A program made the translations under genes and the position numbers. A stretch of DNA of 64,000 nucleotides from an uncultured Gammaproteobacteria bacterium (GTDB lineage: Bacteria > Pseudomonadota > Gammaproteobacteria > Steroidobacterales > BM003), in contig CAVOVJ010000008.1 in the NCBI GenBank assembly GCA_963699835.1, positions 73,417-137,416 on the forward strand. Reading direction: 5' to 3'. Positions 42,574 through 64,000 of the stretch are shown here, in pieces. The notes under the pieces were generated by a model, which did not search any database, was not told the origin of the DNA, and was given only the letters and a program-made list of their open reading frames with translations. Every line of letters begins with the position of its first letter. Within the stretch, counting starts at the first letter, position 1.

Positions 42574-44940
42574 CTACGGCGCGAGTCTGAATCTCGCGTC
42601 CTGACAATACCGGCCAAGGACCAGATTATTTGGGGAAAATTCGAAGGAAATATTGTTGTCGTCCCAGATCACCAGGACATACTCGCCCGGATCCAGCGCG
42701 ATATCCTGCTGCTCGAAGTCGGCCGGACCATCGAAGCCGCCGGTTACAAAACCGTCAGTTCCGTAAATCGCAAAATCCGGATCCACATTCGCGCCAGCCG
42801 GCGGCGTACCGGAGGATTCCAGCAGGAACTGATAAGTATCCGCCGCATCGATCGTGAACTTCAGGTAGCGGCGGTTACTGAGCTTGTTGAAATCGCCCTG
42901 ATCCGCATTGCTGCAAAGACCTCGCCTGAAATTATTGATTAGGAGGTTGGAGTAAAGCGGCAGCACATCGTCGGGCTCGGTGACACCATCCGCCACACCG
43001 TCGTTGGTCTCGTCTTCGCCATACAGATCGATCCCGCCGTTACCGCCGGAAATGTTACCGCCGCCCAGCAGGGCATTGATCGCCGCGACATCCGCCGGAT
43101 TCTCATCACGCAGGTACGAGGCAAACGTGAAAACGCTGGTGAGGCCCGGAGTGGTTTGCTGTGCCCCGGCGAGGACATCGTAAATCGGGCCGAATCCCAT
43201 GGTAATCGTATCGTCGCCGTCATCGGCCGCATCGTAGAGATCGTAAAGAATCTCGCCAATCGTGCATTCGCCGTACCAGCCGGTCGGCACTCCCGCACCC
43301 GCGCACAGGCCGGAGCCGTCTTCGAGGTTGAAAAAGAATCCTGAAGACTGACCAAAGCCGCCTGCGTCCTGGTAAAGCGGATCGCCTATCGCCATCGCCG
43401 AGAACGCGTTACCCCATCCCTCACCGAATGCCACACGCATATCGAGCAGATCGCCGCCGAAATGCGGTCCGCCGACACTGTCCGAACGCGAGAACCGGTC
43501 CTCGAAATAATGACCCCATTCATGCGCCACGACATGGATATCGTATTCGTCGGTATCGACGTCCTCCTCACCGAGGATAAATATCTGTTTGGCTGACGGG
43601 CTTGCGCCCGGATCGCTGGGGTCGTAGAAAGTTGTACCGATGCTGGTATCGGGATCGGTCGTGTTGAGTGGACTCCAGTTCAGCGTCAACTGCGGAAAAT
43701 CGGCCTGTGCGTCAGCGCCCAGAACCAGCAATACCGTTTCATACACGGCATCGAGTATCGCAAACGGCGCGGACGCGCGTGGGCCACTGTAGCCGGCGCC
43801 GCCCCAGCCCGAATTGGCATTCAGGTTGACGGTCCAGTCCTGTACTCCGCTGTCGAATGCATCTCCATCCAGAACGTAACGCGGCTTGGCATTGTCGATA
43901 ATAACACCGCCGTTATCGACCACATCAAAGTCCCAGGTCGGCGAGGCGTCGGTTTTCAACAACCTTGCAACGACGCGGATCCTGACCGAGGCCAGCGACG
44001 GTACCGTCAACGCGTAGTTGCCATTGGCATCGGTGAGCGTCTCGGATCCCGCTATCGGCTGATTGTTCGTGGCATCGAGCCCCTGGACCACCGCGCCTCG
44101 GACGGGACGCTGTTGGATCGAAGAATAATCGAGACCGGACGTCGCGTCGTTATGCGGCACGAAATCGTAGGTAATCCGGCCGCTGACCGCCACGGACGGT
44201 GGTGGATCTATAACCGTAATCGTGACCGAATCTGGAGTCGAGGTCGCGCCCTCGTTGTCGGTTACGATCAACTGGAACACAAAGTCGGTCGGCACGTCGA
44301 CGTCGGGAGCCGAAAAGCCCGGTGCAACGGTGTCGGCATCAACAAGCGTGACAGCCGGACCCGCAGTCTGCGTCCAGGCATAGCCTGAGATGACGCCATC
44401 CGGGTCGAAACTGCCGCTGCCATCAAGCACCACGCCGGTCAGTTCCGCCACGGTCCTGTCAGGCCCGGCGTTGGCGGTCGGGGGCTGGTTCGCCCCAGCG
44501 ATCGGGTTGACGGTAACCGACACGCTGTCCGAACCGGACGAGCCACCGTTATCCGTTACGGTAAGCCGAAAAACCAGCGTCTCCGCGACGCTAACGCCCG
44601 GCGCGGTGAATGTCGCGGTGACTGTATTCGCCCCGGTCAGCGCGACGTTGGTGCCGCTGGTCTGCGTCCATTGATACCCGGTGATGTTGCCGTCGGGATC
44701 CCTGCTGCCGCTACCATCAAGCGTAGCCTGGCTGCCTTCGTCGACGCTGAAGTCGGCGCCGGCGTTCGCGATCGGCGCCTGGTTGCCGCCGCCGCCACCG
44801 CCACCGCCACCGCCGCCGCAGGCAACCAGTGTCATGGTCGCGAGCAGGCTCGCCAACCTGGTAATTTTTCTGATTTGAGAATTCGATTTTTCCGCCAAGA
44901 CGGCTCTCCCTAATTTGCCTGGCCTGATGCTCTTCGACAT
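42574..44940 (-). CDS. Paralogous lipoprotein: 2 PKD-like domains, CarboxypepD_reg-like domain, HExxH metalloprotease-like domain, PPC domain
   Basis: Lipobox MTLVAC then a Gly11 linker. HEWGH at 43510..43524. Long stretches of roughly 80% nucleotide identity (by eye) with 38987..41863, for example ~39400-39760 versus ~42990-43340. Confidence 0.75.
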   Translation of the reverse strand: MSKSIRPGKLGRAVLAEKSNSQIRKITRLASLLATMTLVACGGGGGGGGGGGNQAPIANAGADFSVDEGSQATLDGSGSRDPDGNITGYQWTQTSGTNVALTGANTVTATFTAPGVSVAETLVFRLTVTDNGGSSGSDSVSVTVNPIAGANQPPTANAGPDRTVAELTGVVLDGSGSFDPDGVISGYAWTQTAGPAVTLVDADTVAPGFSAPDVDVPTDFVFQLIVTDNEGATSTPDSVTITVIDPPPSVAVSGRITYDFVPHNDATSGLDYSSIQQRPVRGAVVQGLDATNNQPIAGSETLTDANGNYALTVPSLASVRIRVVARLLKTDASPTWDFDVVDNGGVIIDNAKPRYVLDGDAFDSGVQDWTVNLNANSGWGGAGYSGPRASAPFAILDAVYETVLLVLGADAQADFPQLTLNWSPLNTTDPDTSIGTTFYDPSDPGASPSAKQIFILGEEDVDTDEYDIHVVAHEWGHYFEDRFSRSDSVGGPHFGGDLLDMRVAFGEGWGNAFSAMAIGDPLYQDAGGFGQSSGFFFNLEDGSGLCAGAGVPTGWYGECTIGEILYDLYDAADDGDDTITMGFGPIYDVLAGAQQTTPGLTSVFTFASYLRDENPADVAAINALLGGGNISGGNGGIDLYGEDETNDGVADGVTEPDDVLPLYSNLLINNFRRGLCSNADQGDFNKLSNRRYLKFTIDAADTYQFLLESSGTPPAGANVDPDFAIYGTDGFVTGGFDGPADFEQQDIALDPGEYVLVIWDDNNISFEFSPNNLVLGRYCQDARFRLAP

Positions 44941-49377: not shown

Positions 49378-50823
49378 ATGAGACCGACACGCCCCCGCAC
49401 ACTGACAGGACTGCTGATCCTCGGTTTCGCACTGGTCGCGCTGCCGCTGATCATTGCCGTCGTGCGCGCGGCGTTCGCAATGAACCAGCTGGCGCGGGAA
49501 AGCGAGACACTGGTCGTCGTGGGTGTGGAAGCCACGCGGCTCAGCCAATCGTTGCTCGAGCAACTGCGGGATCTCGAACGCGGTGCGCGGCTCTACCAGG
49601 TGTTGGGCAATCCCGACCTGCTAAGCCTGTACGAAAGCAATCAGAAGGCCTTCCTCGCCGAACTCGGACGCCTGAAATTCCTTACGCCGGACGAAGAATC
49701 GTTGCAGCAGCTTGCCGCCATGCGTGCCGACAGTATCGCTATCGAGGGCGCGCTGAACGCCCTGGCGCCGGAATCGGCTGCGCTAACCGAAGCGCTGGAG
49801 GGTTTTGACCGGCTGCGCGACGCAGCGAACTCGGTGGCTCAATCGAGCCGGCAATACATTTCCCGCGGGCTTGGCGACCTGCGCGAGGAAAGTAGTCGCG
49901 CCCGCCAGACCCTGGCGTGGCAGACTGCGGCGCTGGTACCTGGCACTTTGGGGCTCATCGGCCTGTTTGTTTTTCTCGTTGCCAAACCGCTGCGCCAGAT
50001 CGACCGGGTGATTCGCGATCTCGGCAAGGGCGCATTTTCGCGCGAGATCAAAGTTGCGGGTCCTGCTGACCTTCAGGCTCTGGGCGAACAGCTCGAATGG
50101 CTGCGCAAGCGTCTTCTCGAAATCGCAAATGAACGTAATCGGTTCCTCCGGCATATGTCGCACGAGCTCAAAACACCGCTGGCAAACATCCGCGAGGGCA
50201 CAGACCTGTTGATTGACGGTTCCGTGGGGGATCTCAGTGACGGGCAGCGCGAGGTCGCGGAAATCCTGCGTGGAAGCGGCTTGCGTCTCCAGCAGGATAT
50301 CGAGAACCTGTTGTCATACAGCGCGTGGCAATCGCGGACCGCGACGCTCGAACTCTCCGCCGTGGAATTAAAGCCGCTGGTACTGAGCGTGATCCAGCAA
50401 CACCAACTGAGTCTCGCGGCACGCCGGGTCAAAGTGAAATACCGGATCGAGGAAATAAATCTGACCGCGGACCGCCACAAGTTGCGCATGGTCGCCGACA
50501 ACCTGATGTCAAATGCCGCCAAATTCGCGCCGGCCGACAGCCGGATATATGTACGTGCACGTCGCGAGGGCGACTCCCTGGTGCTGGAAGTGGCCGATTG
50601 CGGGCCCGGAATCAGTGCCCCCGACGAAAGTCGCGTCTTCGACGCGTTCTACCAGGGCGAGTCACCGCAGGGCGGCCCCGTCAAGGGAACCGGGATCGGG
50701 CTTTCCGTCGTCCGCGAATGCGTGCATGCCCATGGCGGACGAGTGGAAATCGTAACGGGCGAGTTTCCGGGAGCGCATTTACGCGTCTACTTCCCGCTGC
50801 AACAGGTATCCGATCATGCGTGA
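49378..50823 (+). CDS. glrK: GlrK/QseE-type sensor histidine kinase
   Basis: 2 TM plus HAMP. The H-box FLRHMSHELKTPLANIREGTDLL closely resembles my recollection of E. coli GlrK. The gene order kinase, lipoprotein, sigma-54 regulator matches glrK-qseG-glrR. Confidence 0.7.
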   Translation: MRPTRPRTLTGLLILGFALVALPLIIAVVRAAFAMNQLARESETLVVVGVEATRLSQSLLEQLRDLERGARLYQVLGNPDLLSLYESNQKAFLAELGRLKFLTPDEESLQQLAAMRADSIAIEGALNALAPESAALTEALEGFDRLRDAANSVAQSSRQYISRGLGDLREESSRARQTLAWQTAALVPGTLGLIGLFVFLVAKPLRQIDRVIRDLGKGAFSREIKVAGPADLQALGEQLEWLRKRLLEIANERNRFLRHMSHELKTPLANIREGTDLLIDGSVGDLSDGQREVAEILRGSGLRLQQDIENLLSYSAWQSRTATLELSAVELKPLVLSVIQQHQLSLAARRVKVKYRIEEINLTADRHKLRMVADNLMSNAAKFAPADSRIYVRARREGDSLVLEVADCGPGISAPDESRVFDAFYQGESPQGGPVKGTGIGLSVVRECVHAHGGRVEIVTGEFPGAHLRVYFPLQQVSDHA

Positions 50824-51409
50824 ACGCGCAGCATTGATGGCGCTGTGTATTGCGCTTGCGGGTCTCGGCGGATGCGTGAGCGATGCCCCGTGGCAGACGC
50901 GCAAAATAACCGAGCCTTCGCAGCCGAGCCACGCCAGCCAATATCTCGAGTTGATCGGCAATATCGCATCCGGTGACCCGACTCTGCAGGCAGACGCTTA
51001 CTACGATGCGGAGCAGGCGTACGTGAGCAATCCCAACGTCTCCAATACGCTGGCTTATGGGCTCGTGCTGGCGACGCCCTCGCATCCGTCGAGCAATGCG
51101 GCCGAGGCGCGCAGCCTGCTGGTACAGGTTCTGGCCGAGCCGGCGCTGCTGACACCCGATGAACGAAATCTCGCTCGTATCGGCCTGAATGTAGTCCAGG
51201 CGCAACTGTTGCTGGAGACAGGCCGCGCCCAGACTCAGGAGCAGCTCAGTGGGGTGCTGGCACAGGAACGGCGCAATCATGCGCAACAGGTCGCGGCGCA
51301 ACAGGCTGAAATAGCGACGCTGCAAAAAGCGCTCGCCGAAGCCGAGTCAAAGCTTGACGCGGTGGCCACCATCGAGCGCAGCCTCGAAGAAGCCGAAAGG
51401 GGTAACTGA
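50816..51409 (+). CDS. Lipoprotein in the QseG/YfhG position (positional analogue)
   Basis: The ATG overlaps the kinase stop. Lipobox LAGLGGC. Coiled-coil-like C-terminus. The assignment rests on position, not on sequence similarity that I could recognise. Confidence 0.45.
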   Translation: MRERAALMALCIALAGLGGCVSDAPWQTRKITEPSQPSHASQYLELIGNIASGDPTLQADAYYDAEQAYVSNPNVSNTLAYGLVLATPSHPSSNAAEARSLLVQVLAEPALLTPDERNLARIGLNVVQAQLLLETGRAQTQEQLSGVLAQERRNHAQQVAAQQAEIATLQKALAEAESKLDAVATIERSLEEAERGN

Positions 51410-51497
51410 TGAACTCTTTATCGAACAAGCGCCATTCCAACACGTGCCGGCCGCCATGCTACCGATAGGCACTCAGGAGCGGAGTAACTCCTCGACG

Positions 51498-52832
51498 ATG
51501 AGCAAGAGAAAGATACTGCTTGTTGATGATGATCCAGGACTGCTCAAGCTCCTGACGATCCGGCTCAAGACCGAGGGTTACGAAGTCGAGGCCGTGGGAA
51601 GCGGCATGGCGGCGCTGAACGCCGCGACGCGGAACCATCCCGACCTTGTCATCTCCGACCTTAAAATGGATGGCATGGACGGAATCGGCCTGCTCGGCGA
51701 ACTGCAGCGGCGGTGGCCCGGATTGCGGGTTATCATCATGACCGCGCACGGCACGATTCCGGATGCGGTGAAAGCGACACAGACTGGCGCATTCGGGTTC
51801 ATCACCAAACCGATCGACAAGGAACAGCTGCTCGATCACATCAGCCGGGCGTTGCAGGTCTCGGGCGCAGCGGCAGGCACAGAGGACTGGCATCAGGAGA
51901 TCATTACCCGTTCGGCGCTAATGGAAGAGCGCCTATCGCAGGCACGAATGGTTGCCGCCACCGATACCCGCGTAATGATCACCGGCGAATCCGGCACCGG
52001 TAAAGAACTCCTGGCCCGCGCGATCCACCGCGCCAGCGCCCGTGCAGATCACCCGTTCGTCGCGATCAATTGTTCGGCGATGGCGGAGACGCTGCTCGAA
52101 TCCGAGTTATTCGGGCATGAAAAAGGCGCATTCACCGGCGCGACCAGGCGTCATGACGGTCTCTTTCAGGCGGCCCACGGCGGGACCCTCCTGCTCGATG
52201 AGATCGGCGACATGCCCGTCACGCTGCAAGCCAAGTTACTGCGCGTCCTGCAGGAGGATCAGGTCAGACCCGTCGGCAGCTCCACGTCTGTGCCTGTCGA
52301 CGTCCGAATCATGTCGGCCACCCACCGCGACCTGAAGTCAATGATGACGCAAGGCGAGTTTCGCGAGGATCTTTTTTATCGCCTCAACGTCGTCAATATC
52401 GAGCTGCCTTCACTCGGCGAGAGACGCGAAGACATTCCGTTGCTGACCGAGCACTTTCTGCGCGAGATTGCTTCCGACACCGGCCTTGAGCGACGCGTCT
52501 ACGCCCCGGAGGCGGTCGAGATGCTTGTGTCGGCGGATTGGCCCGGCAATATTCGTCAGCTTTACAACGTCGTTCGCCAGAACGCGACGCTGTCGTCCAG
52601 CCCGGTGATCAGTGCGGAAGCGGTGAAGTCGGCGTTGGGTGACGATGGCGACTCACTGGCTTCGTTCGCCGAGGCACGCGATGAGTTCATCCGCAATTAC
52701 CTGACGCAGATTCTGCAGATAACGGGCGGTAACGTGACGCGTGCGGCAAAACTCGCGCAACGCAATCGCACTGATTTCTACAAGCTGCTAAACCGCCATG
52801 GGCTCGAGCCCGAGGCATTCAAACGCAACTAG
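51498..52832 (+). CDS. glrR: GlrR/QseF-type sigma-54-dependent response regulator
   Basis: [75 protein letters not shown] and [27 protein letters not shown]. Near-colinear with E. coli GlrR as I recall it. Confidence 0.85.
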
Positions 52833-52956
52833 CCGGCCCTGCATGCCGGTGCGAACCGGTGTTCTCCGGTAGCGCAGCGCATGAGAAGCCGGGCAACGCC
52901 CGCAAGCAACAATCGCGGTTTGGGATGTTTCCCGGCGCTGTCGTGAGCGGTGCGTC

Positions 52957-53829
52957 TCACGCTCGCAAAATTACCGTCCGCGGCCCGCTCTGAAACACCC
53001 GACGTTCTGCGTGCCATCGGATCGCGCGCAGCAATACGACACTTTCGAGGTCGTGCCCGATTTCCATCAGTTTGTCCGGACCCATAGCGTGATCGACACG
53101 CTCAACCGCTTGCTCGATGATCGGGCCCTCGTCGAGATCCTCTGTCACATAGTGCGCAGTAGCACCGATAATTTTCACACCTCGTGCATACGCCTGGTGA
53201 TAGGGGCGCGCGCCTTTAAAGCCGGGCAGGAACGAATGGTGAATATTGATGCATTGGCCGCGCAGTCTTTTGCATACTGATGACGACAGAACCTGCATAT
53301 AGCGGGCGAGAACAAGCAAGTCACAATTTGCTTCCTCGAAAATCTCCAGCAATCGATCTTCCTGGTCCGCTTTACTTTCCGGCGTGACCGGAAGATGGTG
53401 ATACGGGACCTCATACCATCCCGCCATTTTCTCCTGCGTTCTGTGGTTGGAAACAATACCGACAATATCGATCGGCAGGACGCCCATACTCCATCGATGC
53501 AGGATACTGTTGAGGCAATGCCCCTGCTTCGATACCGCGATCAGCACCCTCGGCCGCTGCCGGGACGGAAAGAATTTCCAGTGCATCTGAAACTGTCGCG
53601 CGACATCGGCAAAGTTTCTCTCAAGTTCTTTTAGCGGTGGCAAACCACCACCACGGAACTCTGTTCGCATCAACGACCTGTCCTGATAGGGATCGCGAAA
53701 ATGCGCCGACTCGGTAATCAGTCCGTTTTGACCGGCGATAAAGCTGGTCACGGCCGCAACGATACCGGTCGCATCCGGACACTCTGTGGTCAGCACATAG
53801 GAAGGCCCCGTTTCGTTGTTCGCTTGCAT
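52957..53829 (-). CDS. purU: Formyltetrahydrofolate deformylase
   Basis: N-terminal ACT domain plus formyltransferase motifs (INIHHSFLPGFKGARPY, GATAHYVTEDLDEGPII). Confidence 0.9.
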   Translation of the reverse strand: MQANNETGPSYVLTTECPDATGIVAAVTSFIAGQNGLITESAHFRDPYQDRSLMRTEFRGGGLPPLKELERNFADVARQFQMHWKFFPSRQRPRVLIAVSKQGHCLNSILHRWSMGVLPIDIVGIVSNHRTQEKMAGWYEVPYHHLPVTPESKADQEDRLLEIFEEANCDLLVLARYMQVLSSSVCKRLRGQCINIHHSFLPGFKGARPYHQAYARGVKIIGATAHYVTEDLDEGPIIEQAVERVDHAMGPDKLMEIGHDLESVVLLRAIRWHAERRVFQSGPRTVILRA

Positions 53830-53923
53830 GGTTTCTCCCGTCCCGCTGCGGCAGTTTTTGGCTCGATCTTGTTTGATTCAGCCTACGCCAGGCTCACGAG
53901 CCAAGCGAAACTCCGATCACAAA

Positions 53924-54832
53924 CTACCCAACGAACTCCGAAATAGCATCGATAGCACTGGCGAGATCACTAAACCTCAATAACCGGATGTCGCTGCTGT
54001 CGATTATGTCCCTGACGGTGCTGAATCCGCCCTCACCCTGCTCGGCATAATTAAACGCATTGCCGGCGAGCTTCATGAATGCGGCAGACTTCTCGAGCGG
54101 CTGTGAACGAAGCTCCGCGCCCGCCACGTATTTCGGAAATACAACGAGCACGGGGCGAGCGGGGGTGCGGTCGACAGCACTGGCAGCAGACGCCGCCAGA
54201 TGGGCCACTGTCCCTTTTCGTGTCTTCGGAAACTCAGGACCCATTACTGCATGTTCCGAATAGCGACGGATCACCTCGATCGACTCGTTTTTCAGGGCTA
54301 CCGTGCGCGGGACCGGAATAAATTCGCAACTGTGCGGGCGCATCAAACCGAACTCATCGGAAAACAGCCGCCAGCCTGACAGCATCAATGCGGCCGCCAG
54401 CGTACTCTTACCACTCCCCGGTTCTGCGGCGAGAACAATGGCCTTGCCATTTTTCTCGAGCACGGCCGAGTGCAGCACCAGATACTGCTGAGCACGACTA
54501 CCGATACACCAGTTGATTCCCCACTCGAGCAGCGGAAAGGCGCTTTCGAGTGGAAACGGATCGAACGGACAGCTCCCGTCGATGACAAATCGCGCTTGCG
54601 GTCGCCAGAGTCTGCGAACGCCGGGAACGGGCAACATGTTCACATGAAAATCGCTGACGTCGGCGGGGTCGCCCTGCTCAAAATCGCCGTAGAGACGGTA
54701 GACGAGCGAGGACACCTCAACCAGCGGCGTGGTCAGATGCACCTGAAACGGACCCACACGATAAAAAACCCCGGGTCCGGCGGCGGCGTCGACAAAGTCC
54801 TGCTGGGTTTGCGCGGCCGAAATCAGCGCCAT
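53924..54832 (-). CDS. HprK-related kinase A family protein (P-loop)
   Basis: Walker A AAEPGSGKSTLAAAL within an HPr-kinase-like C-terminal fold pattern. About 300 aa. The start overlaps the PqqD-like gene by 10 nt. Family assignment (TIGR04352-like) is from memory. Confidence 0.65.
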   Translation of the reverse strand: MALISAAQTQQDFVDAAAGPGVFYRVGPFQVHLTTPLVEVSSLVYRLYGDFEQGDPADVSDFHVNMLPVPGVRRLWRPQARFVIDGSCPFDPFPLESAFPLLEWGINWCIGSRAQQYLVLHSAVLEKNGKAIVLAAEPGSGKSTLAAALMLSGWRLFSDEFGLMRPHSCEFIPVPRTVALKNESIEVIRRYSEHAVMGPEFPKTRKGTVAHLAASAASAVDRTPARPVLVVFPKYVAGAELRSQPLEKSAAFMKLAGNAFNYAEQGEGGFSTVRDIIDSSDIRLLRFSDLASAIDAISEFVG

Positions 54833-55146
54833 TGATCTGCCAGCCCGGCCGCTTCGAGCCGAAGCACGACATCGGCAAGCTGTTCGCGCAGGATTTCGAG
54901 CTGATTACTCTCTACCTCGACGGACAACGCATCAAACACGGCTTCGCCAGTCAGCGGTCGATCCGACAGCAGTTCCAGGACGGCACCCGCCAGCGGCGCG
55001 AGATAATGAGTCTGGCCAGACCTGCAATCGAATAACACAAACTCTTCCGCGCCCGGCCAGTTACCGAGACGCCACTGCGAGGCACCGGGACTGTACCAGC
55101 TGGAAGTGAACACATTGAATCCGACGTCGGCCACGGCAACGCCCAA
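54823..55146 (-). CDS. PqqD-family (RRE-type) peptide-binding protein
   Basis: 107-aa ORF. The pattern FVLFDCRSGQTHYLAPLAGAVLELLSDRPLTGEAVFDAL is typical of PqqD-like proteins. The start codon is uncertain (TTG at 55146). Confidence 0.6.
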   Translation of the reverse strand: MGVAVADVGFNVFTSSWYSPGASQWRLGNWPGAEEFVLFDCRSGQTHYLAPLAGAVLELLSDRPLTGEAVFDALSVEVESNQLEILREQLADVVLRLEAAGLADQWR

Positions 55147-55167
55147 GATACCGACTAGAGGAGTGGC

Positions 55168-55815
55168 TTACCAGACTTGCTTTGCAGCTGCCTCGGCGAC
55201 CGAACTCCAGCAAGACAACATAACCGCCCTACCGGAATCGGCGTGTTCCGGACCGATGCCCAGAATCCGGCCGTCGTCCGTCACATAGATGATTGCAAAG
55301 CGCTTCTCTTCGACCCAGGTGCGGGTGTAGGTATCGCCCAGCGGGCTCACAAAGGAGTCGCGAAACCCCTTGGACCAGCGATTTCCGTCCAGATCCGATG
55401 CATACCGATCGAAATCGATCAAAAGATGGGCATCGTCCGCGTCGACCCCGCCGACCATGTCACCTCCCTTCATTGGAACGGTGCGCTCGAAGGCTTCAGC
55501 CTTGACGCCATCAGGCTTGAGCTGGGCCGCCCGCTGGTCGCCCTTCAAACCGCTGTCGCGCTGAACCCAAAAAGCCTTGACTTCCTGCCGCGCCCACTTG
55601 TCCGTCCACTTGGAGAACATGGTCTTCGGCTGTTCCTGCTGGTTGGCTACGCACTCGGTAAAACTGCCCGCTGCCGCCGACACCGGTGTAAGAGTCAACA
55701 CCGCTGGTGCCGCGGCGCCAGCCGCAAGCAGGCTGCGCCGCCTCTTGTCGACGGTCTGGTCAAAAAGTTTTGCGCCCGGCTTAACCGGTTGATCTGAGGC
55801 TATTTTTTTATTCAT
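55168..55815 (-). CDS. Hypothetical exported protein with twin-arginine-like signal
   Basis: ATG at 55815. KRRRSLLAAGAAAPAVLTLTPVSAAAG. No domain recognised. First gene of the PqqD/kinase transcription unit. Confidence 0.5.
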   Translation of the reverse strand: MNKKIASDQPVKPGAKLFDQTVDKRRRSLLAAGAAAPAVLTLTPVSAAAGSFTECVANQQEQPKTMFSKWTDKWARQEVKAFWVQRDSGLKGDQRAAQLKPDGVKAEAFERTVPMKGGDMVGGVDADDAHLLIDFDRYASDLDGNRWSKGFRDSFVSPLGDTYTRTWVEEKRFAIIYVTDDGRILGIGPEHADSGRAVMLSCWSSVAEAAAKQVW

Positions 55816-56041
55816 CCCTGTTCTTCTTCTGCCCGGTCGGATTTCCAAAAGGTGCCGAGCTCTAAGTATAGACCGCAAATTATTACCAACATAAGGCCAT
55901 TTAACTTAATCCGGAAAATGGTTTTTCCCGTTTTTCTCAGCGGCTTATGCCAGTGGCTTAGAGTACACTCTCACCAGTTCGATATCCAGCCTCGTCGCAA
56001 ACGCGGGGTTTCACACGCCACTCGAGGCACGCCGAAAACCG

Positions 56042-57142
56042 ATGCCCCTTTCTTTTTCGCTACCCAGCTGGCTTCAGATGCAAATCGACCCCGGTGGCGC
56101 TGGCGATCGCTCAGCCGCCGAATGGGACCGTTTCCTCCGCGCTTCCCGCCGCGAAGGGCTTCTCGGACGCTTCGCAATGCAGCTCGATCAGCTCGATATT
56201 ACCGCGTCTCTGCCGGCAAAAATCCAGGACATGCTAACCGCCGGTAAGACGACAGCCGCACAGCATCGGCGCATGATCCGCTGGGAAACCGACAGAATCG
56301 GATATGCGTTGAGGCGATGCAGCTTTCCTGTGGTTCTGTTGAAAGGGGCAGCCTACCTCGGCGCGGACCTGCCCTTGTCGCTGGGACGACTCGTGTCCGA
56401 CATCGATATACTCGTCGCGCAGGAACACCTCCGCGCAGTCGAAGCCGCGCTGTTGTCGGAAGGCTGGCAGCATGTCAAACCCGACCCTTACGATCAGCGC
56501 TACTACCGGCGCTGGATGCATGAATTGCCGCCAATGCGCCATCAGATGCGACGTACCGAGATCGACGTGCACCACAACATCCTGCCGCTGACTGGCAAAC
56601 TTAAAGTCGACGCGTCCGCTTTGCTGGAGGGAGCGGTGCCGATCGGGGACCAGCGATTCATGGTCCTTGGCCCCGCCGATATGACGCTGCATTCCGCGGT
56701 GCACCTGTTCCACGATGGCGCGTTCGAACACGGTTTACGCGATTTGCTCGACCTCGATGCGCTGTTCACCGATTTCGGCCGCGACAGCCGGTACTGGCAA
56801 TCACTCGCCGACCGCGCCGAGCAATTGGGCCTGACGCACCCTCTTTATTATGCGCTGGACACTTGCCATCGCGCCCTCGCAACCGCCATCCCGGAATCGA
56901 TGCTGGACCGGGCACAGACATGGAGACCGGGCGGGCTGAAACGCCGAATGATGGAATACCTCGTCCAGCACCAGGTTCTGCGGTCGCGAATCGATGACAT
57001 CGGGCGCGAGAATGCTATTGCTGACACCCTTGCAGAGACCCGCGCCCACCTGCTTCGCATGCCACTCCGGCTTTTGCTACCGCATCTTGCGCACAAGACC
57101 ATGTTGCGCATGGCCGAGCCAAAAAAGAGTTACGATGGCTGA
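56042..57142 (+). CDS. Uncharacterised nucleotidyltransferase family protein (NTP_transf_5-like)
   Basis: VVLLKGAAYLGADLPLSLGRLVSDIDILVAQEHL...GW is the family signature. Divergent from the PqqD/kinase unit. Confidence 0.7.
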   Translation: MPLSFSLPSWLQMQIDPGGAGDRSAAEWDRFLRASRREGLLGRFAMQLDQLDITASLPAKIQDMLTAGKTTAAQHRRMIRWETDRIGYALRRCSFPVVLLKGAAYLGADLPLSLGRLVSDIDILVAQEHLRAVEAALLSEGWQHVKPDPYDQRYYRRWMHELPPMRHQMRRTEIDVHHNILPLTGKLKVDASALLEGAVPIGDQRFMVLGPADMTLHSAVHLFHDGAFEHGLRDLLDLDALFTDFGRDSRYWQSLADRAEQLGLTHPLYYALDTCHRALATAIPESMLDRAQTWRPGGLKRRMMEYLVQHQVLRSRIDDIGRENAIADTLAETRAHLLRMPLRLLLPHLAHKTMLRMAEPKKSYDG

Positions 57143-57146
57143 ATCG

Positions 57147-58328
57147 TCAGCTTCCGCCGCGATACTCGAACGCACCGATATCGATCGGGCCGATTGTCGC
57201 GCGCGGCGCCGTGCCCCGCACTTTCTGGACTTCCAGCGTTGGCGTAAGCGATACACCCTCGAAATCTTCGACCTGCAGGCCGGCGTCGATGGCTTTGGCA
57301 CCCGCAGCAGAGTGAGAAATCGCGCTCTTTCCATGCGACAAACGGGGAATCAGCCGGTGACGTCACGAGCAAATTATTCGGTGTACCTCGATCGCCGCCG
57401 AGACCGAATTCCCCGCCTCCTGCAAAAATATTGTTGACGACCGACACGCTGGACGGCGAGTGCCGGATCTTCAGGAAAACGGTGTTTGCACGATCCGTGA
57501 CGAAAGTATTGTTGACCACAAACAATACGCTGTCGGCATGCGGGTTTTTCTCAGCACCAAAGGAGACCATGCCATTATTGCGCGCATTCGGACCCTGATG
57601 CAGCACGTTGCCGACCAGGAAGGCCCTGCCTCCCTGCGGAAAATCGACCAGGTAGCTCGAATCACCGGTCTCGCCGTCGTCGATGCGGTTGAACATATGA
57701 GGCTCTCGCGCGCCCGCGACTTTATATGGTGACCCGTGTGCGTCTGACTAAACACGCTACCGCGAATGGTCAGTCGGTAATGTTACCGACATAGATGCCG
57801 TGGGCCCGGCCGCTGCTGTGGCCGTTTCTCTCGAACAGCGAATCTTCAATGACGATCTCGCTCTCGCCTTTGTTTTTCTTGGTCCGGCCGGCAAGAATGC
57901 CGTTTTCGTTGTCGATGAAGCGGCAATTCCTGACAGTCAGGTTGGCCCCAAGCAGGCGTATACCCGCGCCATTCTTGTCGCGAACGCGCGCTCCCGAAAA
58001 GGCAATGTTCTCGACCCTGACGTTATTGCCGGAAATAACCCAGATCCCCATCCCCCGCGCGTTCCTGCCCGCAGCCTTGATTTCCACATTGCCAATACCG
58101 CGGAGGGTAAGATTGTTGCGCTTCCAAACCGCGACATCGCCTCAGTAGGTCCCGGCCATGATCTCGATCGTGTCCCCGTCTTTTGCCGCCTTCGCATGCG
58201 GCGCCAGGATCCGGGTAGGCCTCGCCCGGACCCACTCGCAGGGTGCTCGCCATGGATGTGACCGGCACGACCGCGGCAACCAGCAAAAGACTGCATACCG
58301 CAAACACTGAAATGGCTCGATTTTTCAT
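57147..58328 (-). pseudogene. Secreted right-handed parallel beta-helix repeat protein (polysaccharide lyase/epimerase-like); at least 4 frame breaks
   Basis: Signal peptide MKNRAISVFAVCSLLLVAAVVPVTSMA. Beta-helix repeats (GIWVISGNNVRVENIAFSG, GAGIRLLGANLTVRNCRFIDNENGIL, HGIYVGNI, FVVNNTFV) are spread over ORFs 58023..58328, 57770..58087, 57471..57755, 57130..57696 and 57147..57341. Confidence 0.6.
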
Positions 58329-58506
58329 AATTCCGATGACACTCGTTTCCCCGTCAACCTATAGCTTTCGCCTATTTAGCATGGATCGCAAATCTGTGCG
58401 CTGCGCCATACTTCTGTTAGATTCCGCATTGTATGCTTCGGCTCATCAACAAAAAATTCCATTTCTTCTTTAAATTACACCAACTTAGCGGGATGCAGGC
58501 GGCTCA

Positions 58507-60092
58507 ATGCTGGTTCATGAATTACTGATAGACAGCGCCCATCACAATCCCGATGGGCAGGCGCTGACACTCAGGTCCGACATGCTGTCCTACGGCGATC
58601 TCGCGTCACGGGTCGGCGCGTTTGCGAGACGCTGTCCTCGGTGCCGACCTCAGACCCACGGACCGGGTCGCGGTCTATTTGCCAAAGACGTTCGAAACGG
58701 TGATTTCCTTTTTCGGCACCGCGCATGCCGGCGGCGTTTTCGTTCCGGTCAACCCGTTGCTGAAACCCGCCCAGGTTGCCTATATTCTGCAGGACTGCAA
58801 TGTCCGGATTCTCGTCACCAGCGGCGACCGCCTGGCGCAACTCGGCGATGATTTGCGCCACTGCACCGATCTTCATACTGTCGTGGTCACCGGAAATGAT
58901 GGTAGCGCAACGCCAGACCTCGGTCACGTTCACGTTGTCAACTGGGGCGAGTTCATCAGTGCCGAAAGTCAACAGCTGGTGCGTCGCCGTATCGACACAG
59001 ATATGGCCGCGATTCTTTATACATCGGGAAGCACCGGCAGTCCGAAAGGCGTCGTGCTGTCTCACCGAAATATCGTGGCTGGAGCGCAAAGCGTCGCTAC
59101 CTATCTCGAGAACACATCAAGAGACCGACTTGCTCGCGGTACTTCCTTTCAGTTTCGATTACGGCTTCAGCCAGCTTACGACTGCTTTTCTGAAAGGCGC
59201 CATGGTCGTAATGATGGACTACCTGCTACCGCGTGACGTCATTCGTGCCATCGACAAACACGCCATCACCGGGCTGGCCGGGGTGCCGCCGCTGTGGAAC
59301 CAGCTATGCAAGCTGGACTGGCCGGAGAGCGCGCGTGAGACGCTGCGCTATATCACGAACTCAGGTGGTGCGATGCCAACGGCAACATTGGCCTCGTTAC
59401 GCGAACGCCTGCCGAAGACCCGGCCCTACCTGATGTACGGGCTCACCGAGGCCTTCCGCTCGACCTATTTGCCGCCTGAAGAAATAGACCGGCGTCCCAC
59501 CTCCATGGGCAAGGCTATTCCCAATGCAGAGATTCTGGTGGTCCGCGAGGACGGCGCAGCGTGTTCGCCGGGCGAACCCGGAGAACTCGTGCACCGCGGC
59601 GCGCTGGTGTCGCTCGGGTACTGGAACGACGAGGAGCGCACGAAGCAAAGGTTTAGACCGGCACCTGGTCAGCCCGACGGCATCGTGTTGCGGGAAATCG
59701 CGGTCTGGTCCGGTGATACCGTCAAAAAGGACGAGGCTGGATTCCTCTACTTTATCGGCCGCAAGGACGACATGATCAAGACTTCGGGCTATCGGATCAG
59801 TCCCACCGAGATCGAGGAAGTCGTGTACGCATCCGGCCATGTCAGCGAAGTCGCAGCGCTGGGGATTTCTCACCCTGATCTCGGTCAGGCAATCGTCCTG
59901 GTCGCCGTGCCCGCACCTGGAGCCGACCCAAGCGATGACCGCGTTCTGTCTTTTTGCCGCGAGCAGTTGCCCAATTTCATGGTCCCTTCGCGAATCGTCT
60001 GGCGCGACAAGCTGCCGCGTAATCCCAACGGCAAGATCGACCGCAAGTCACTAACCGCTGGACTGGATTCAATGTTCGAGGTAGGCGAATGA
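58507..60092 (+). pseudogene. AMP-forming acyl-CoA ligase of the exosortase-A-associated type; two frame breaks (~58625, ~59125)
   Basis: AMP-binding motifs ILYTSGSTGSPKGVVLSH, YGLTEA, SGDTVKKDEAGFLYFIGRKDDMIKTSGYRISPTEIE and PRNPNGKIDRK lie in three frames. Adjacent to the PLP decarboxylase, as in TIGR03098/TIGR03099 pairs (from memory). Confidence 0.8.
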
Positions 60093-61332
60093 GTCGCGAA
60101 AGCAAACATCGTCATGTGGCCCTCGAGAGCGTCGACACTGTCGACAACGTGCTTATATGGGCGGGACGGAAAATCTCGGACATTGCAGAAGAAGTCGGGC
60201 AAACGCCGTTCTACTGCTACGACCGCGACAGACTGGACCGGCGCGTCGCGGAACTTCGATCGGCACTGCCGGACGACATATCCATTCACTACGCGATGAA
60301 GGCAAATCCGATGCCCGCGGTTGTCGCGCACATGGTGACACTCGTCGACGGCCTTGACGTTGCCAGCGGCGGTGAGTTGCGGGTGGCTCTCGACACGGGT
60401 ATCGACCCCCAACTCGTATCGTTTGCCGGGCCAGGCAAACGAATTGAAGAAATCGCCCAGGCTATTGCCGCCGGCATCACTTTAAACGTCGAGTCCGAGC
60501 TCGAACTCGAACGGATCGTCCGGATCGCCGGCGAACAGAATCGACGCGCGAGTGTTGCGATTCGCGTCAACCCGGATTTCGAACTGAAAACGTCGGGCAT
60601 GAAGATGGGCGGCCGGCCCGCGCAGTTCGGCATTGACGCCGAACGCGTTCCCGGCATTCTCCGGGAAATCAATCTGGACGAGATTGATTTCGCCGGCTTT
60701 CATGTGTACTCGGGCAGCCAGAATCTGAGTCACGACGCAATTATCGAAAGTCAGACCAAGACGCTCGATCTGTGTATCACGGCTAGCGGAAGATGCGCCC
60801 TGCCCACCGCGGCTGCTCAACATCGGTGGCGGTTTCGGCATTCCGTATTTTCCGGCTGACCGACATCTCGATCTCGCACCGATTGGCGAGAATCTCGAGC
60901 AACTCGTGCCCAAAGCACAAGGGCCAGCCTCGGCGATGTCGAGATCGTTATCGAACTCGGCCGCTACCTGGCAGGCGAAGCGGGCATCTACGTCAGCCGC
61001 GTCCTGGACAAGAAAATCTCGCGCGGCGAGACCTTCCTGGTTGTCGACGGGGGGCTTCATCATCACCTCGCCGCATCGGGTAACTTTCGGCCAGATTTTG
61101 CGTAAGAATTACCCGACCGTGGTCGGCACATCGGTCGTGGACGAATCGATGTCCGCTGCCACGGTGGTCGGACCGCTTTGCACGCCGCTCGATCTGCTCG
61201 CCGACACCATGCCGCTGGGCCATGCCGAGGTCGGGAGATCTGATCGTTGTGTTCCAGTCCGGCGCATATGGACTCTCTGCCAGTCCGACCCGTTTCCTGA
61301 GTCATCCGGAGCCGGGCGAGTTGCTTGTCTGA
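60089..61332 (+). pseudogene. PLP-dependent (Orn/DAP/Arg-type) decarboxylase of the exosortase-A-associated type; about 4 frame breaks
   Basis: The ATGA start overlaps the ligase stop. HYAMKANP (Lys for PLP), DVASGGEL, LLNIGGGFGIPY, IELGRYLAGEAG, VVGPLCTP and FQSGAYG are distributed over alternating frames. Confidence 0.8.
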
Positions 61333-61415
61333 TCCCGCCGCCCCGGCCTTCACCTGACATCGAATCCACAGCCGATATCTGGCAGCAGTATCCAGACACA
61401 TTTGACCGAAACCAC

Positions 61416-62368
61416 ATGAGTGAAAGACTCTCCCCATCGGGAGCACACAGCGATGCATCATGGAACGGTGAGGAGCCGCTGGTGTCCGTCATCGTGCCGG
61501 CTTATAACGCCGAGAGTCACATCGCACGCGCTTTGCAGAGCATAAGTGGGCAAACCTATCCGAAGCGTAGAAATTATCGTCGTCGACGATGGCTCAACAG
61601 ATGCGACGAAGAAGGTCGTTCGCCGTTGCGGCTCCTGACGCCAGGTACATCCGCATAAAGAATTCGGGGCCGGCCGCGGCGCGCAATGAGGGCAATCGTC
61701 ATGCAAAGGGCAAGTACATTGCGTTTCTCGATGCAGACGATTTATGGCATCCGCGCAAGCTTGAACTGCAGGTTGCATACCTCGAACGGAACGCAGGAAT
61801 CGGAGCCGTGTTCTGTACGTGGTGTGAGACCTTTCCCACCGAGACAAATATTGACTGGAGAACAAAAGCAGGAATCCGACGCACCGCTGGCCTGGAGATC
61901 GTGCCGCAGAATTCTGGCTGGCTCTATCCCGAATTGTTGCTAGACACCATAATCCACACATCCTCGGTGATCTTGCGCAAGGATTTGTTCGACGGACTTA
62001 CGGATTCAATCAATCGCTCACCATTGGCGAGGATTATGATCTCTGGATCCGGCTTTCACGGATCACCGAAATACACAAATTGCGCGCTACGCTCTCGGGT
62101 ACGAGCAACGCCTGGACAGTATCACGCGGACGCCCCAGGCGAGCCCGTTCGGCGCGACCGTGATTCGCAGAAATCTGAAACAAATGGGGACGGCGGGTCC
62201 GGACGGCCGCCGCGCAAACTGGTTCGCCGTGCGGCGGCGAATTGCACAGTCCTTTCGCAATTATGGCGCGACTCACCTGAGGCTTGGTGCTCGCGCCACC
62301 GCGATCCGTTCCTGCGCTGCACGCGTCGTTCTATGATCCGATTTCCTCAAGCAACTGGCGCAGCCTGA
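61416..62368 (+). pseudogene. Family 2 glycosyltransferase; about 3 frame breaks, 3' end uncertain (62345 or 62368)
   Basis: VSVIVPAYNAE...GQTYP, (VE)IIVVDDGSTD in a second frame, YIAFLDADDLWHPRKLE, then GEDYDLWIRL in another frame. Confidence 0.75.
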
Positions 62369-62522
62369 TAAAGGCACGTGATTAATTACAAAACGTCAAG
62401 GGGCCTGCAAAAAACCGACGGAGCCGCCGATCCATGAATCAGTCGGCAACATGTCAGTGTGAATATGTCGCCACGAAGAAGGGCATCGGATCATCCGCGC
62501 TGCGCTATTCGAAGAGTCACCA

Positions 62523-63978
62523 ATGACAATGCGACAACGCGTACTGCACGGTCTCGGCCTGGCTGGTTGCCGGACGCGGAATCGCCCAGACCATTCAGCT
62601 GGGTCGCGACGATCTATGTCATTCGCCTGCTCGCGCCGGAAGACTATGGCATCGTCGCGATCGCAACCGTGCTTTTCGGCTTGTTGATAAGACTGTGCGA
62701 TGCGGGATTTGGTAATGCGGTCGTCGTCAGCGAGGATACGGACAAGCGAACCCTGCAGGAATTTTTCGGCTTCCTGCTGATCATCAGCATCGGACTCGCT
62801 CTCTTGCACTTGCTTGCGCACCGCTGCTGGCTGCGTTTTTCAAAGAGCCGCGAATCGTTCCGGTCATCCAGGTTTTGTCTCTGGGTTTCGTTTTTACCGC
62901 TCTCTCGATCATCCCTTCGGCGCTTTTGACAAAGAAGATGCATTTCAAGCGCTTTGCCATCGCGTCTTCGATTGCGACGCTCAGCGGGACCGACGGTTAC
63001 CGTCACCCTAGCATTCAAGGGTTACGCATTCTGGTCGCTGATCATTGGCCAACTGCCACGCAGTTTGCGATCGCCATCGTTTTCATGGTTGCCGCGAAAA
63101 CATGGCTTACTACCGCGATTCCCCGCAAGCAAACGATGTCTCTGATTTCCGTTGGCAGCTCCATTACAGCGGCGAGCCTGCTGTGGTATTTCTACACGAA
63201 ACTCGACGTATTCATTGCCGGACGACTATGGAACTCGACCGTACTCGGGATATTACACCGTGCCAGTTCATCTGGCGCGTCTGCCTGCGGGCAAAGTCAT
63301 GCCGTTGCTGCGCAAGATTGCAATGCCGTTCTTTGCGGAACTCCGCGCCAACCCGTCCGCCGTCGCGTATTATTTCCGCCGCATATTCAGCGTTGGCGCA
63401 CTTGTCTCTTTGGCGTATTTTTCGGCATTGCGAGCGTCGCGCCCGACCGCTGTACCGCTAATTGCTCGGCGACAGATGGGCACCGAGCACTTGGCTTGTT
63501 GTTTACCGTATGTCTCGGAATGCCATTCTCCAGCCTTATCGGTCTTTATAGCCCGATTCTTCAGGCCACCGGCCATCACGCTTTGGCTCTTTCCAACACG
63601 ACGCTGGCATTGGTCCTGTTTTCCGTGACATTTACCGTGGGAGCGCTGCAGGGTCCGTTGGGCCTTGCGTCCGCGTGGGCCATCTCATTCCCAATATTGT
63701 TTCTGATCATCACCTTGCGGTCCGCACCACGCTTGGGTGTGCGACCCACCGATGTCTTCATGAACATCATTGCGCCGCTCTCTGCCGCAGCTTTGATGCT
63801 GGCGGCAAACCTGATTTATTGGCACTTTTCACCCTTCAACATGCAGCCTGCTGTGATGCTCGCTACTCAAATTGTGCTGGGTGCCGCGACCTACATCTTT
63901 TCGCTATTGCTACTGGATGGCAAGGCGCTCAAATCGGCCATCGCGATGGTCGCAGGCAAAAGAACTAAGGCCGCCTGA
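62523..63978 (+). pseudogene. Wzx-like polysaccharide flippase (MOP superfamily); at least 4 frame breaks
   Basis: IYVIRLLAPEDYGIVAIATVLFGLL..., VLSLGFVFTALSIIPSALLTKKMHFKRFA and many further TM segments in ORFs 62459..62929, 62875..63978, 63152..63628 and others. Confidence 0.6.
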
Positions 63979-64000
63979 AATGGGAAAACACATGACCACT

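Follow-up and report, generated by a model that had tools for sequence, protein, structure and literature searches.

What do an HPr-kinase-like enzyme, a PqqD-like protein and a nucleotidyltransferase act upon when they are encoded together, with no cyclase beside them? This question is raised by a locus in a 64,000-nucleotide stretch of DNA (contig CAVOVJ010000008.1, positions 73,417 to 137,416 of the forward strand; assembly GCA_963699835.1), referred to below as the window, from an uncultured gammaproteobacterium of the order Steroidobacterales. An original prediction, made from the sequence alone, described a module here that lacks a recognisable precursor and lies next to exopolysaccharide (EPS) genes. 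The list of open reading frames (ORFs) agrees with the positions it gave for four genes: a protein with a twin-arginine translocation (Tat) signal (55168..55815(−)), the PqqD-like protein (54823..55146(−), 107 aa), the kinase (53924..54832(−), 302 aa) and, divergent to this trio, a nucleotidyltransferase of the NTP_transf_5 type (56042..57142(+)). The 10-nt overlap of the PqqD-like and kinase genes was also found (ATGGCGCTGA). The absence of a precursor did not stand: the Tat-signal protein is a member of a conserved, unannotated, precursor-like family, and its 215-aa product is, on sequence grounds, our favoured candidate for the substrate of the cassette enzymes.

Genes Linked to the Kinase

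The kinase belongs to a large family, comprising 3998 or more clusters when an identity limit of 90% is applied. Scanning a single genome for each species retrieved kinase relatives in 466 species, of which the best 80 loci were taken with 10-kb flanks; with the window they form a linkage set of 81 loci, every ORF of which was clustered by all-versus-all BLAST. The hosts of the 80 loci are Gammaproteobacteria (Sedimenticolaceae, Chromatiaceae, Methylococcales and Competibacteraceae), Betaproteobacteria (Accumulibacter and Dechloromonas) and Magnetococcales. They include the cultured strains Plasticicumulans lactativorans DSM 25287 (L049), Lamprocystis purpurea DSM 4197 (L050) and Thiohalocapsa sp. 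ML1 (L034). The nearest locus, L001, comes from a metagenome-assembled genome of an uncultured gammaproteobacterium; its kinase is 94% identical to that of the window and its DNA about 86% identical.

The kinase is present in all 81 loci. The original prediction hinged on its partners being conserved elsewhere, and they are: the PqqD-like protein is found in 79 of the 81 loci, an adjacent NTP_transf_5 gene in 77 and a member of the upstream protein family in 79. The grouping of these genes is far beyond chance. The NTP_transf_5 gene is located either directly downstream of the kinase gene and in the same orientation (56 cluster members) or, as in the window, divergently upstream (23 members). 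The ORFs upstream of the PqqD-like gene code for 130–260 aa; their bodies cannot be aligned, so that BLAST splits them into several clusters, and their ends are alike. A hidden Markov model (HMM) of the precursor, built from 44 members (alignment A2), identified one ORF per locus in the 79 loci, always directly upstream of the PqqD-like gene and on the same strand. One of the two loci without a match, L012, has only 140 bases upstream of the PqqD-like gene. In the whole window the sole match was 55168..55878, which is the upstream ORF as listed from a TTG codon; starting at the ATG at 55815 yields 215 aa, the length of close homologues P0123–P0128. When the search was started from the precursor side, with independent gene calls, the same order was recovered: precursor, an ORF of ~107 aa, a PF27840 kinase and NTP_transf_5.

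The median gap between the precursor and PqqD-like genes is 31 nt. In most loci the PqqD-like gene runs 1–14 nt into the kinase gene; typically its stop codon and the kinase start share 4 nt (ATGA; 50 of 79 loci), and the 10-nt form seen in the window belongs to a minority (6 loci). The original prediction had reported no convincing small ORF in the gaps 55816..56041 and 53830..53923, and a small-ORF search likewise revealed no ORF of note there. Given the short median gap, the overlap and these empty gaps, there is no room for another precursor.

One can ask whether the locus is instead a decayed paeninodin-type lasso cluster, left without cyclase, protease and precursor, since lasso clusters have the same three enzyme types. 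As the original prediction stated, no lasso cyclase or leader protease is present near the cassette in the window, and none was found among the conserved neighbours. However, the four genes recur together and intact, with neither cyclase nor B2 protease, in 80 genomes of several orders, across which the kinases are 43–54% identical. All four window genes are intact as well and are 99% identical in four other metagenomes, whose contigs match 52800..57200 with at least 99% identity and zero indels; the cassette is thus intact and well supported. A decayed lasso cluster is already contradicted by these data, and we give it virtually no credence.

The BLAST clustering of all ORFs in the 81 loci revealed no further partner shared by more than 19 of them. 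The commonest accessory gene, coding for a secreted trypsin-like serine protease, was found in 19 of the 81 loci, from several orders (L005, L007, L009, L021, L022, L038, L044, L045, L049, L051, L055, L058, L059, L063, L064, L065, L071, L073 and L074), 1.6–3.9 kb away from the start of the kinase gene; the window does not encode it. Where present, it is a possible processing enzyme for the exported product.

The neighbourhood of the cassette bears on another alternative, according to which the exported protein is a partner and not a substrate, and the PqqD-like protein, acting as a recognition element (RRE) for peptides made by the ribosome and modified after translation (RiPPs), would work with the kinase on a peptide encoded elsewhere or on a non-protein molecule such as an EPS intermediate. 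The proximity to EPS genes noted by the original prediction holds in the window, where the cassette adjoins fragments matching the NCBIfam models TIGR03098 (exosortase-A-associated ligase) and TIGR03099 (decarboxylase), but it is not conserved elsewhere. A homologue of the exosortase-A ligase lies near the cassette only in L001, L010 and L071 (the match in L039 is weak), and Accumulibacter loci adjoin glnD, map, rpsB and tsf. The EPS link is therefore local to this lineage and is no property of the system. It also speaks for a partner role that modification of the exported protein is argued from analogy, and that LppN, an enzyme of the linear polyphosphorylated peptide (LPP) clusters of Bacillota, may need partners from outside its cluster (PMC13381572). 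On the other hand, PqqD-type RREs bind peptides, no other gene recurs in more than 19 loci, and the family-specific leader invariants described below would be hard to account for otherwise. We consider a partner role unlikely.

The Precursor Family

Among 44 members of the family of the Tat-signal protein, none matched a curated Pfam or NCBIfam model, even at E ≤ 1, and the source annotations of the homologues all read "hypothetical protein", with no Pfam domain. An exhaustive profile search with a limit of E ≤ 1e-3 retrieved 1641 cluster representatives, of which 410 reached E ≤ 1e-10. What is new here is the recognition of this precursor family; the catalogued HPr-rel-A system and modification of the LPP and phospho-lasso kind were known before.

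In the window protein, a leader precedes a variable body, and the C-terminal part holds a conserved motif. The leader (residues 1–49; 55669..55815(−)) comprises an n-region, K24-R25-R26-R27, an h-region with P37 and T41-L42, and an AxA-type site, A47-A48-A49; read along the sequence, KRRRSLL is followed by a hydrophobic stretch and AAA. The leader pattern of the family is RR-x9-P-x3-TL-x-SG-AAxA-xxS, with the twin-arginine consensus RRRxL[IVL][KR]G, and alignments A3 and A4 show no variation at R26, R27, P37, T41, L42 or A49. Position statistics were collected for 75 family members relative to the invariant Pro (75 of 75). The twin-arginine pair occupies P−12 and P−11 in 63 and 71 members, respectively; Thr is found at P+4 in 74, Leu at P+5 in 72, Gly at P+8 in 71 and Ala at P+12, the −1 position of the AxA site, in 71. 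Ser occurs at P+15 in 53 members and at P+14 or P+15 in 72, and the first Cys is at P+19 in 39 and at P+15 in 15. From its position relative to Pro and to Ala(P+12), the conserved Ser would be residue +3 or +2 of the predicted mature protein. The window equivalents are R26-R27, P37, T41-L42, A47-A49, S51 and C55. Ser51 (55663..55665(−)), 14 residues after the invariant Pro, is a candidate phospho-acceptor.

A second conserved element, S-C-Φ-x-S-Φ, is found near the C-terminus of almost all 75 members. In the window it reads S201-C202-W203-S204-S205 (55201..55215(−)) and may be an alternative acceptor or a structural element. In alignment A4, S205 is invariant and S201 nearly so, and 1–20 residues follow the last Ser. 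The Accumulibacter-type subfamily has a degenerate form of the motif, "AILSSASASSL". The shortest arrangement seen is a miniature 82-aa precursor in L068 (7020..7268(+)), in which the leader is followed by a mature part of 18 residues, "STQCDTATASCLDSFNGL"; judging by its sequence, it marks the minimal conserved elements of the family.

Comparison between loci gave 47% identity for the leader and likewise for the kinase, 42% for NTP_transf_5, 26% for the PqqD-like protein and only 19% for the remainder of the precursor. Such a contrast between a conserved leader and a hypervariable rest usually marks a ribosomal precursor. The leader invariants also appear to exceed the needs of a generic Tat signal.

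The leader end "TLRSGALAAASC" in L017, L023, L030, L032, L037 and other Accumulibacter or Methylococcaceae loci also fits a lipobox, and such members may be Tat-exported lipoproteins.

Two conserved serines leave two candidate sites. One may suppose that cassette and substrate are the same and that the kinase acts on Ser205 of the C-terminal motif, the leader Ser being kept for signal-peptidase or lipobox reasons. The conservation of S205 and S201 and the presence of the motif in almost all members are in line with this, as is the fact that the kinases PadeK and PsmK phosphorylate a C-terminal Ser (PMC6993621). However, the conserved Ser is never the last residue of the protein, the motif is degenerate in the Accumulibacter type, and the leader Ser stands at the exact LPP spacing from the Pro of the RRE motif. 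We regard Ser205 as a doubtful but serious candidate, and favour Ser51.

The Enzymes

The family assignments of the original prediction were confirmed, with all three proteins scoring above the cut-offs of the corresponding models: 347.2 bits for the kinase on TIGR04352 HprK_rel_A (NCBIfam; cutoff 200), 49.4 bits for the PqqD-like protein on TIGR04353, "HPr-rel-A system PqqD family peptide chaperone" (cutoff 35), and 192.6 bits for the nucleotidyltransferase on PF14907 (threshold 31.2).

An AlphaFold2 (AF2) model of the kinase (pLDDT 94.5) was compared with known structures by Foldseek; ATP-dependent phosphoenolpyruvate carboxykinase (PEPCK) was retrieved first (E = 2e-7, TMq ~0.5), followed by HprK/P (E = 2e-4 to 1e-3, TMq 0.2–0.3). 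The model thus predicts a P-loop kinase of the PEPCK/HprK fold, the superfamily expected. The P-loop (Walker A loop G139-S-G-K-S-T144, 54401..54418(−)), D159-E160 and several further residues are invariant in kinase alignment A1. The original prediction had allowed for the enzyme turning out to be a genuine HprK/P. By sequence it is not one: the NCBIfam matches are limited to TIGR04352, ScmC and HprK_rel_B, and a search of PDB sequences with the kinase profile yielded P-loop-level matches only, with HprK at E = 0.27. The match to ScmC (TIGR04249) reaches 26 bits (cutoff 125) and covers the P-loop portion only. Relatives of the kinase carry PF27840 ("ScmC") in the protein database; with a local copy of Pfam, the window kinase gave no PF27840 match and only a sub-threshold match to the nSTAND3 P-loop.

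The PqqD-like protein scores 21.9 bits on Pfam PqqD, slightly below the gathering score of 23.4. With this sub-threshold score, and with no pqqA, pqqB, pqqC or pqqE near the cassette, it does not qualify as a PqqD of PQQ (pyrroloquinoline quinone) biosynthesis. The profile of its family (A5) matches the lasso RRE TfuB1 (6jx3_B) across the entire domain with E = 0.0034, positions 25–94 of the profile aligning to chain residues 29–96, and the protein is in this sense related by sequence to a structurally defined leader-binding RRE. For NTP_transf_5, a search of PDB sequences gave no match; its motif G115-R116-x3-D120-x-D122 (56384..56407(+)), together with D175 and H177, is kept in at least 72 of 74 homologues. 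Taken together, the conserved motifs, the fold and the RRE match make the enzymes of the cassette look competent.

It can be argued that no covalent modification takes place at all, the PqqD-like and P-loop proteins being a proofreading or targeting device for the Tat signal of one exported protein, similar to TorD or DmsD. The location of conserved residues within the h-region of the signal peptide and the translational coupling of PqqD-like protein and kinase are consistent with such a device. It leaves unexplained, however, both a conserved nucleotidyltransferase with an intact catalytic motif and the kinase-type invariants beyond the P-loop; moreover, the nearest characterised relatives of the kinase are true kinases. 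We find a pure proofreading role very improbable.

Transcription and the Control Region

Assembled contigs (Logan) of four metatranscriptome runs cover 55128..55829 at ~99% identity and, in addition, 55800..55928; there is almost no RNA contig cover on the PqqD-like, kinase or NTP_transf_5 genes. The contigs end at ~55926–55928 in three runs, within the divergent control region (55816..56041), and at 55128 in two, i.e., 40 nt beyond the precursor stop codon, within the start region of the PqqD-like gene. A gene-by-gene search detected the precursor in at least 5 RNA runs of 2 studies (word share 0.37–0.89) and the kinase in 1 (0.22). Such a distribution would be expected if the precursor transcript is abundant and the enzyme transcripts are rare.

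The control region is 90% identical to that of L001, as compared with ~86% for the DNA around it. A promoter scan of 53800..56200 predicted no sigma-70-like site, and inspection by eye revealed no properly spaced sigma-54 −24/−12 element upstream of the RNA ends. A terminator scan of the same interval returned one terminator-like hairpin, located inside the kinase gene; this is fewer than in shuffled sequences. Rfam and tRNA scans of the window produced no match. The precursor gene's transcribed 5′ leader contains a 26-aa ORF (MLVIICGLYLELGTFWKSDRAEEEQG, 55812..55892(−)); the product of this ORF is 92% identical in L001, and the ORF was not found in more distant loci. Being kept in L001 alone, it was rejected as a conserved component of the system.

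Proposed Modification of the Exported Protein

The original prediction had named the co-transcribed 215-aa exported protein as one possible substrate. Comparative genomics supports this choice through the linkage in 79 of 81 loci, the geometry of the leader and the divergence between leader and body. By analogy with characterised systems, we think it rather probable that the locus is an LPP-like protein-modification cassette of four genes (precursor, RRE, kinase and nucleotidyltransferase) in which the Tat signal serves as the leader and no dedicated peptidase or exporter is present.

Starting from the observed family membership, linkage, conserved-leader/variable-body pattern, leader geometry and precursor transcription, we infer RRE binding, the phosphorylation site, decoration and export as follows. 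The leader would have two readers, the cytoplasmic RRE and the Tat machinery. The PqqD-like RRE would bind it around P37/T41-L42 in the cytoplasm and hand it to the HprK-related kinase, which would phosphorylate a conserved Ser; Ser51 is favoured because of its LPP-like Pro-to-Ser spacing, with Ser205 as the alternative. NTP_transf_5 would then decorate the phosphate, much as PsmN adds a hexose in pseudomycoidin. Finally, the modified protein would be exported by Tat and cut after the AxA site by the general signal peptidase. Tat carries finished proteins. The cassette could do without a dedicated peptidase or exporter because Tat and the general signal peptidase would do both jobs. We put forward more tentatively, as something less likely than the cassette itself, that the secretion signal doubles as a RiPP leader, with the RRE as a Tat-signal chaperone that holds the protein until the phospho-(glycosyl) Ser has been built.

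Several points weigh against this pathway. Adjacency alone cannot prove an enzyme–substrate relation, and phosphorylation, its site and any glycosylation are drawn by analogy. HMMs of Tat signals match only 3–7 of 44 precursor members, all weakly, and the leader has no counterpart of the Tyr/Trp in the [Y/W]xxP motif that lasso and LPP RREs bind. The Accumulibacter-type LAAASC fits a lipobox, and the Ser there may be conserved for that reason. The AF2 model of the precursor, computed from alignment A4, has a pLDDT of 42, too poor for use, and the RNA evidence, being based on contigs, is non-quantitative and strandless.

If the proposed pathway is true, it would be RiPP-like without a peptidase or exporter of its own, and through it Accumulibacter, Competibacter, methanotrophs and purple sulfur bacteria would secrete phosphoglycoproteins whose bodies are hypervariable. 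Such products might be components of the matrix or surface, or primers for polysaccharide attachment. Among these hosts are organisms with a key role in phosphorus removal from wastewater, in methane oxidation and in the sulfur cycle, where surface and matrix proteins matter for aggregation. Confirmation would extend phosphorylated RiPP-like products from Bacillota to Proteobacteria; it would also mean that RRE-guided modification acts on full-size exported proteins and that RiPP leader recognition is tied to Tat export.

Flanking Genes and Sequence Quality

To the right of the cassette, 57150..64000 encodes a beta-helix protein, the TIGR03098 ligase, the TIGR03099 decarboxylase, a glycosyltransferase and a flippase, all broken by single-base indels. 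Their five counterparts in L001 are intact (425, 527, 412, 339 and 483 aa, respectively). When three other metagenomes were compared with the right flank of the window, 1-base indels were seen at 11 places, most of them at or within a few bases of the indels from the comparison with L001. The breaks are due either to assembly error or to a decaying EPS locus in this strain. Similarity to the other metagenomes changes at ~57200, from at least 99% without indels on the left (52800..57200) to 95–99% with indels on the right, a change that points to a mosaic of strains or to a poorer consensus on the right-hand side.

To the left, 49378..52832(+) encodes a sensor kinase, a 197-aa protein without a family match and a sigma-54 response regulator, whose best match is GlrR (621 bits; cutoff 763). 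Assignment of this system to the PEP-CTERM regulators PrsK/PrsT/PrsR was rejected, as PEP_resp_reg scores 370 (cutoff 502) and the system is GlrK/GlrR-like instead. Further away, ORFs 38987..41863(−) and 42574..44940(−), of 958 and 788 aa, resemble models for myxosortase-/rhombosortase-dependent M36 metallopeptidases in the C-terminal repeat part alone and do not match the peptidase domain.

Comparison with Known Systems

The kinase and the PqqD-like protein of the window are members of the HPr-rel-A system (TIGR04352/TIGR04353), being encoded adjacently and scoring above both curated cut-offs. The catalogue entry comprises these two proteins only, and the precursor family has neither an NCBIfam nor a Pfam model. 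The original prediction regarded the pairing as catalogued yet uncharacterised; in agreement with this, the literature that we searched names neither HprK-related kinase A, TIGR04352, TIGR04353 nor PF27840. A pair long catalogued without a substrate now has a conserved candidate substrate with two candidate serines.

ScmC of the SynChlorMet system (TIGR04249; PF27840) belongs to the same kinase-like superfamily and likewise occurs in a peptide-maturation context, but no radical-SAM maturases are present in the window cassette. The Tat signal-binding chaperones TorD, DmsD and NapD are cytoplasmic proteins that hold a twin-arginine signal until maturation is complete. Their fold is unrelated to that of an RRE, and they serve cofactor insertion, whereas covalent modification is proposed here, so the likeness is one of resemblance only.

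Paeninodin and pseudomycoidin clusters share the enzyme types of the cassette: an HprK-like kinase acting on a precursor Ser, an NTP_transf-type enzyme and a PqqD-type B1 protein. In pseudomycoidin, the HprK-like PsmK phosphorylates Ser, and PsmN, which requires D134 and D136, places a hexose on the phosphate (PMC6993621); the window NTP_transf_5 motif with D120 and D122 is analogous to these two residues. However, lasso clusters contain the cyclase C, the B2 protease and an ABC exporter, none of which is found in the window cassette. Their substrates are ~40 aa long, as opposed to 130–260 aa here, and the conserved Ser of the present family is never the C-terminal residue.

A close functional analogue has since been characterised in the LPP clusters, described in Bacillota and stated to be restricted to them (Popov et al., Nat Commun 2026; PMC13381572). 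LPP precursors are 35–200 aa long, with a conserved N-terminus, YxxPxVLxHQxIxFETxxS, and variable C-termini; core residue Ser3, just beyond the cleavage site, is polyphosphorylated by the HprK-like LppK; the clusters have no cyclase and often lie within polysaccharide loci (PMC13381572). On gene content, the cassette agrees with them in one respect, judging from the Pfam, NCBIfam, linkage and RRE profile evidence. The differences are several. LPP clusters contain the signal peptidase I-like LppS and an MsbA-like ABC exporter; the window cassette encodes no such peptidase, nor is any such family common to the 81 loci, and no conserved transporter lies beside the cassette. The kinase described here falls into an NCBIfam equivalog (TIGR04352) separate from the LPP kinase, and the hosts are Gamma- and Betaproteobacteria and Magnetococcales instead of Bacillota. 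The full LPP motif is not found; the two leaders have in common the Pro, the Ser and the −1/+3 spacing and no more. Unlike the LPP leader, that of the window is of the twin-arginine type and lacks the aromatic residue of YxxP, and the cassette precursors have an extra conserved S-C-Φ-x-S motif at the C-terminus. On the other side stand the precursors themselves, which in both systems combine a conserved N-terminus with a variable remainder, those of LPP clusters reaching up to 200 aa. If the window family is cut after Ala(P+12), both would have Pro at −13, a site of the signal peptidase I type and Ser at +3.

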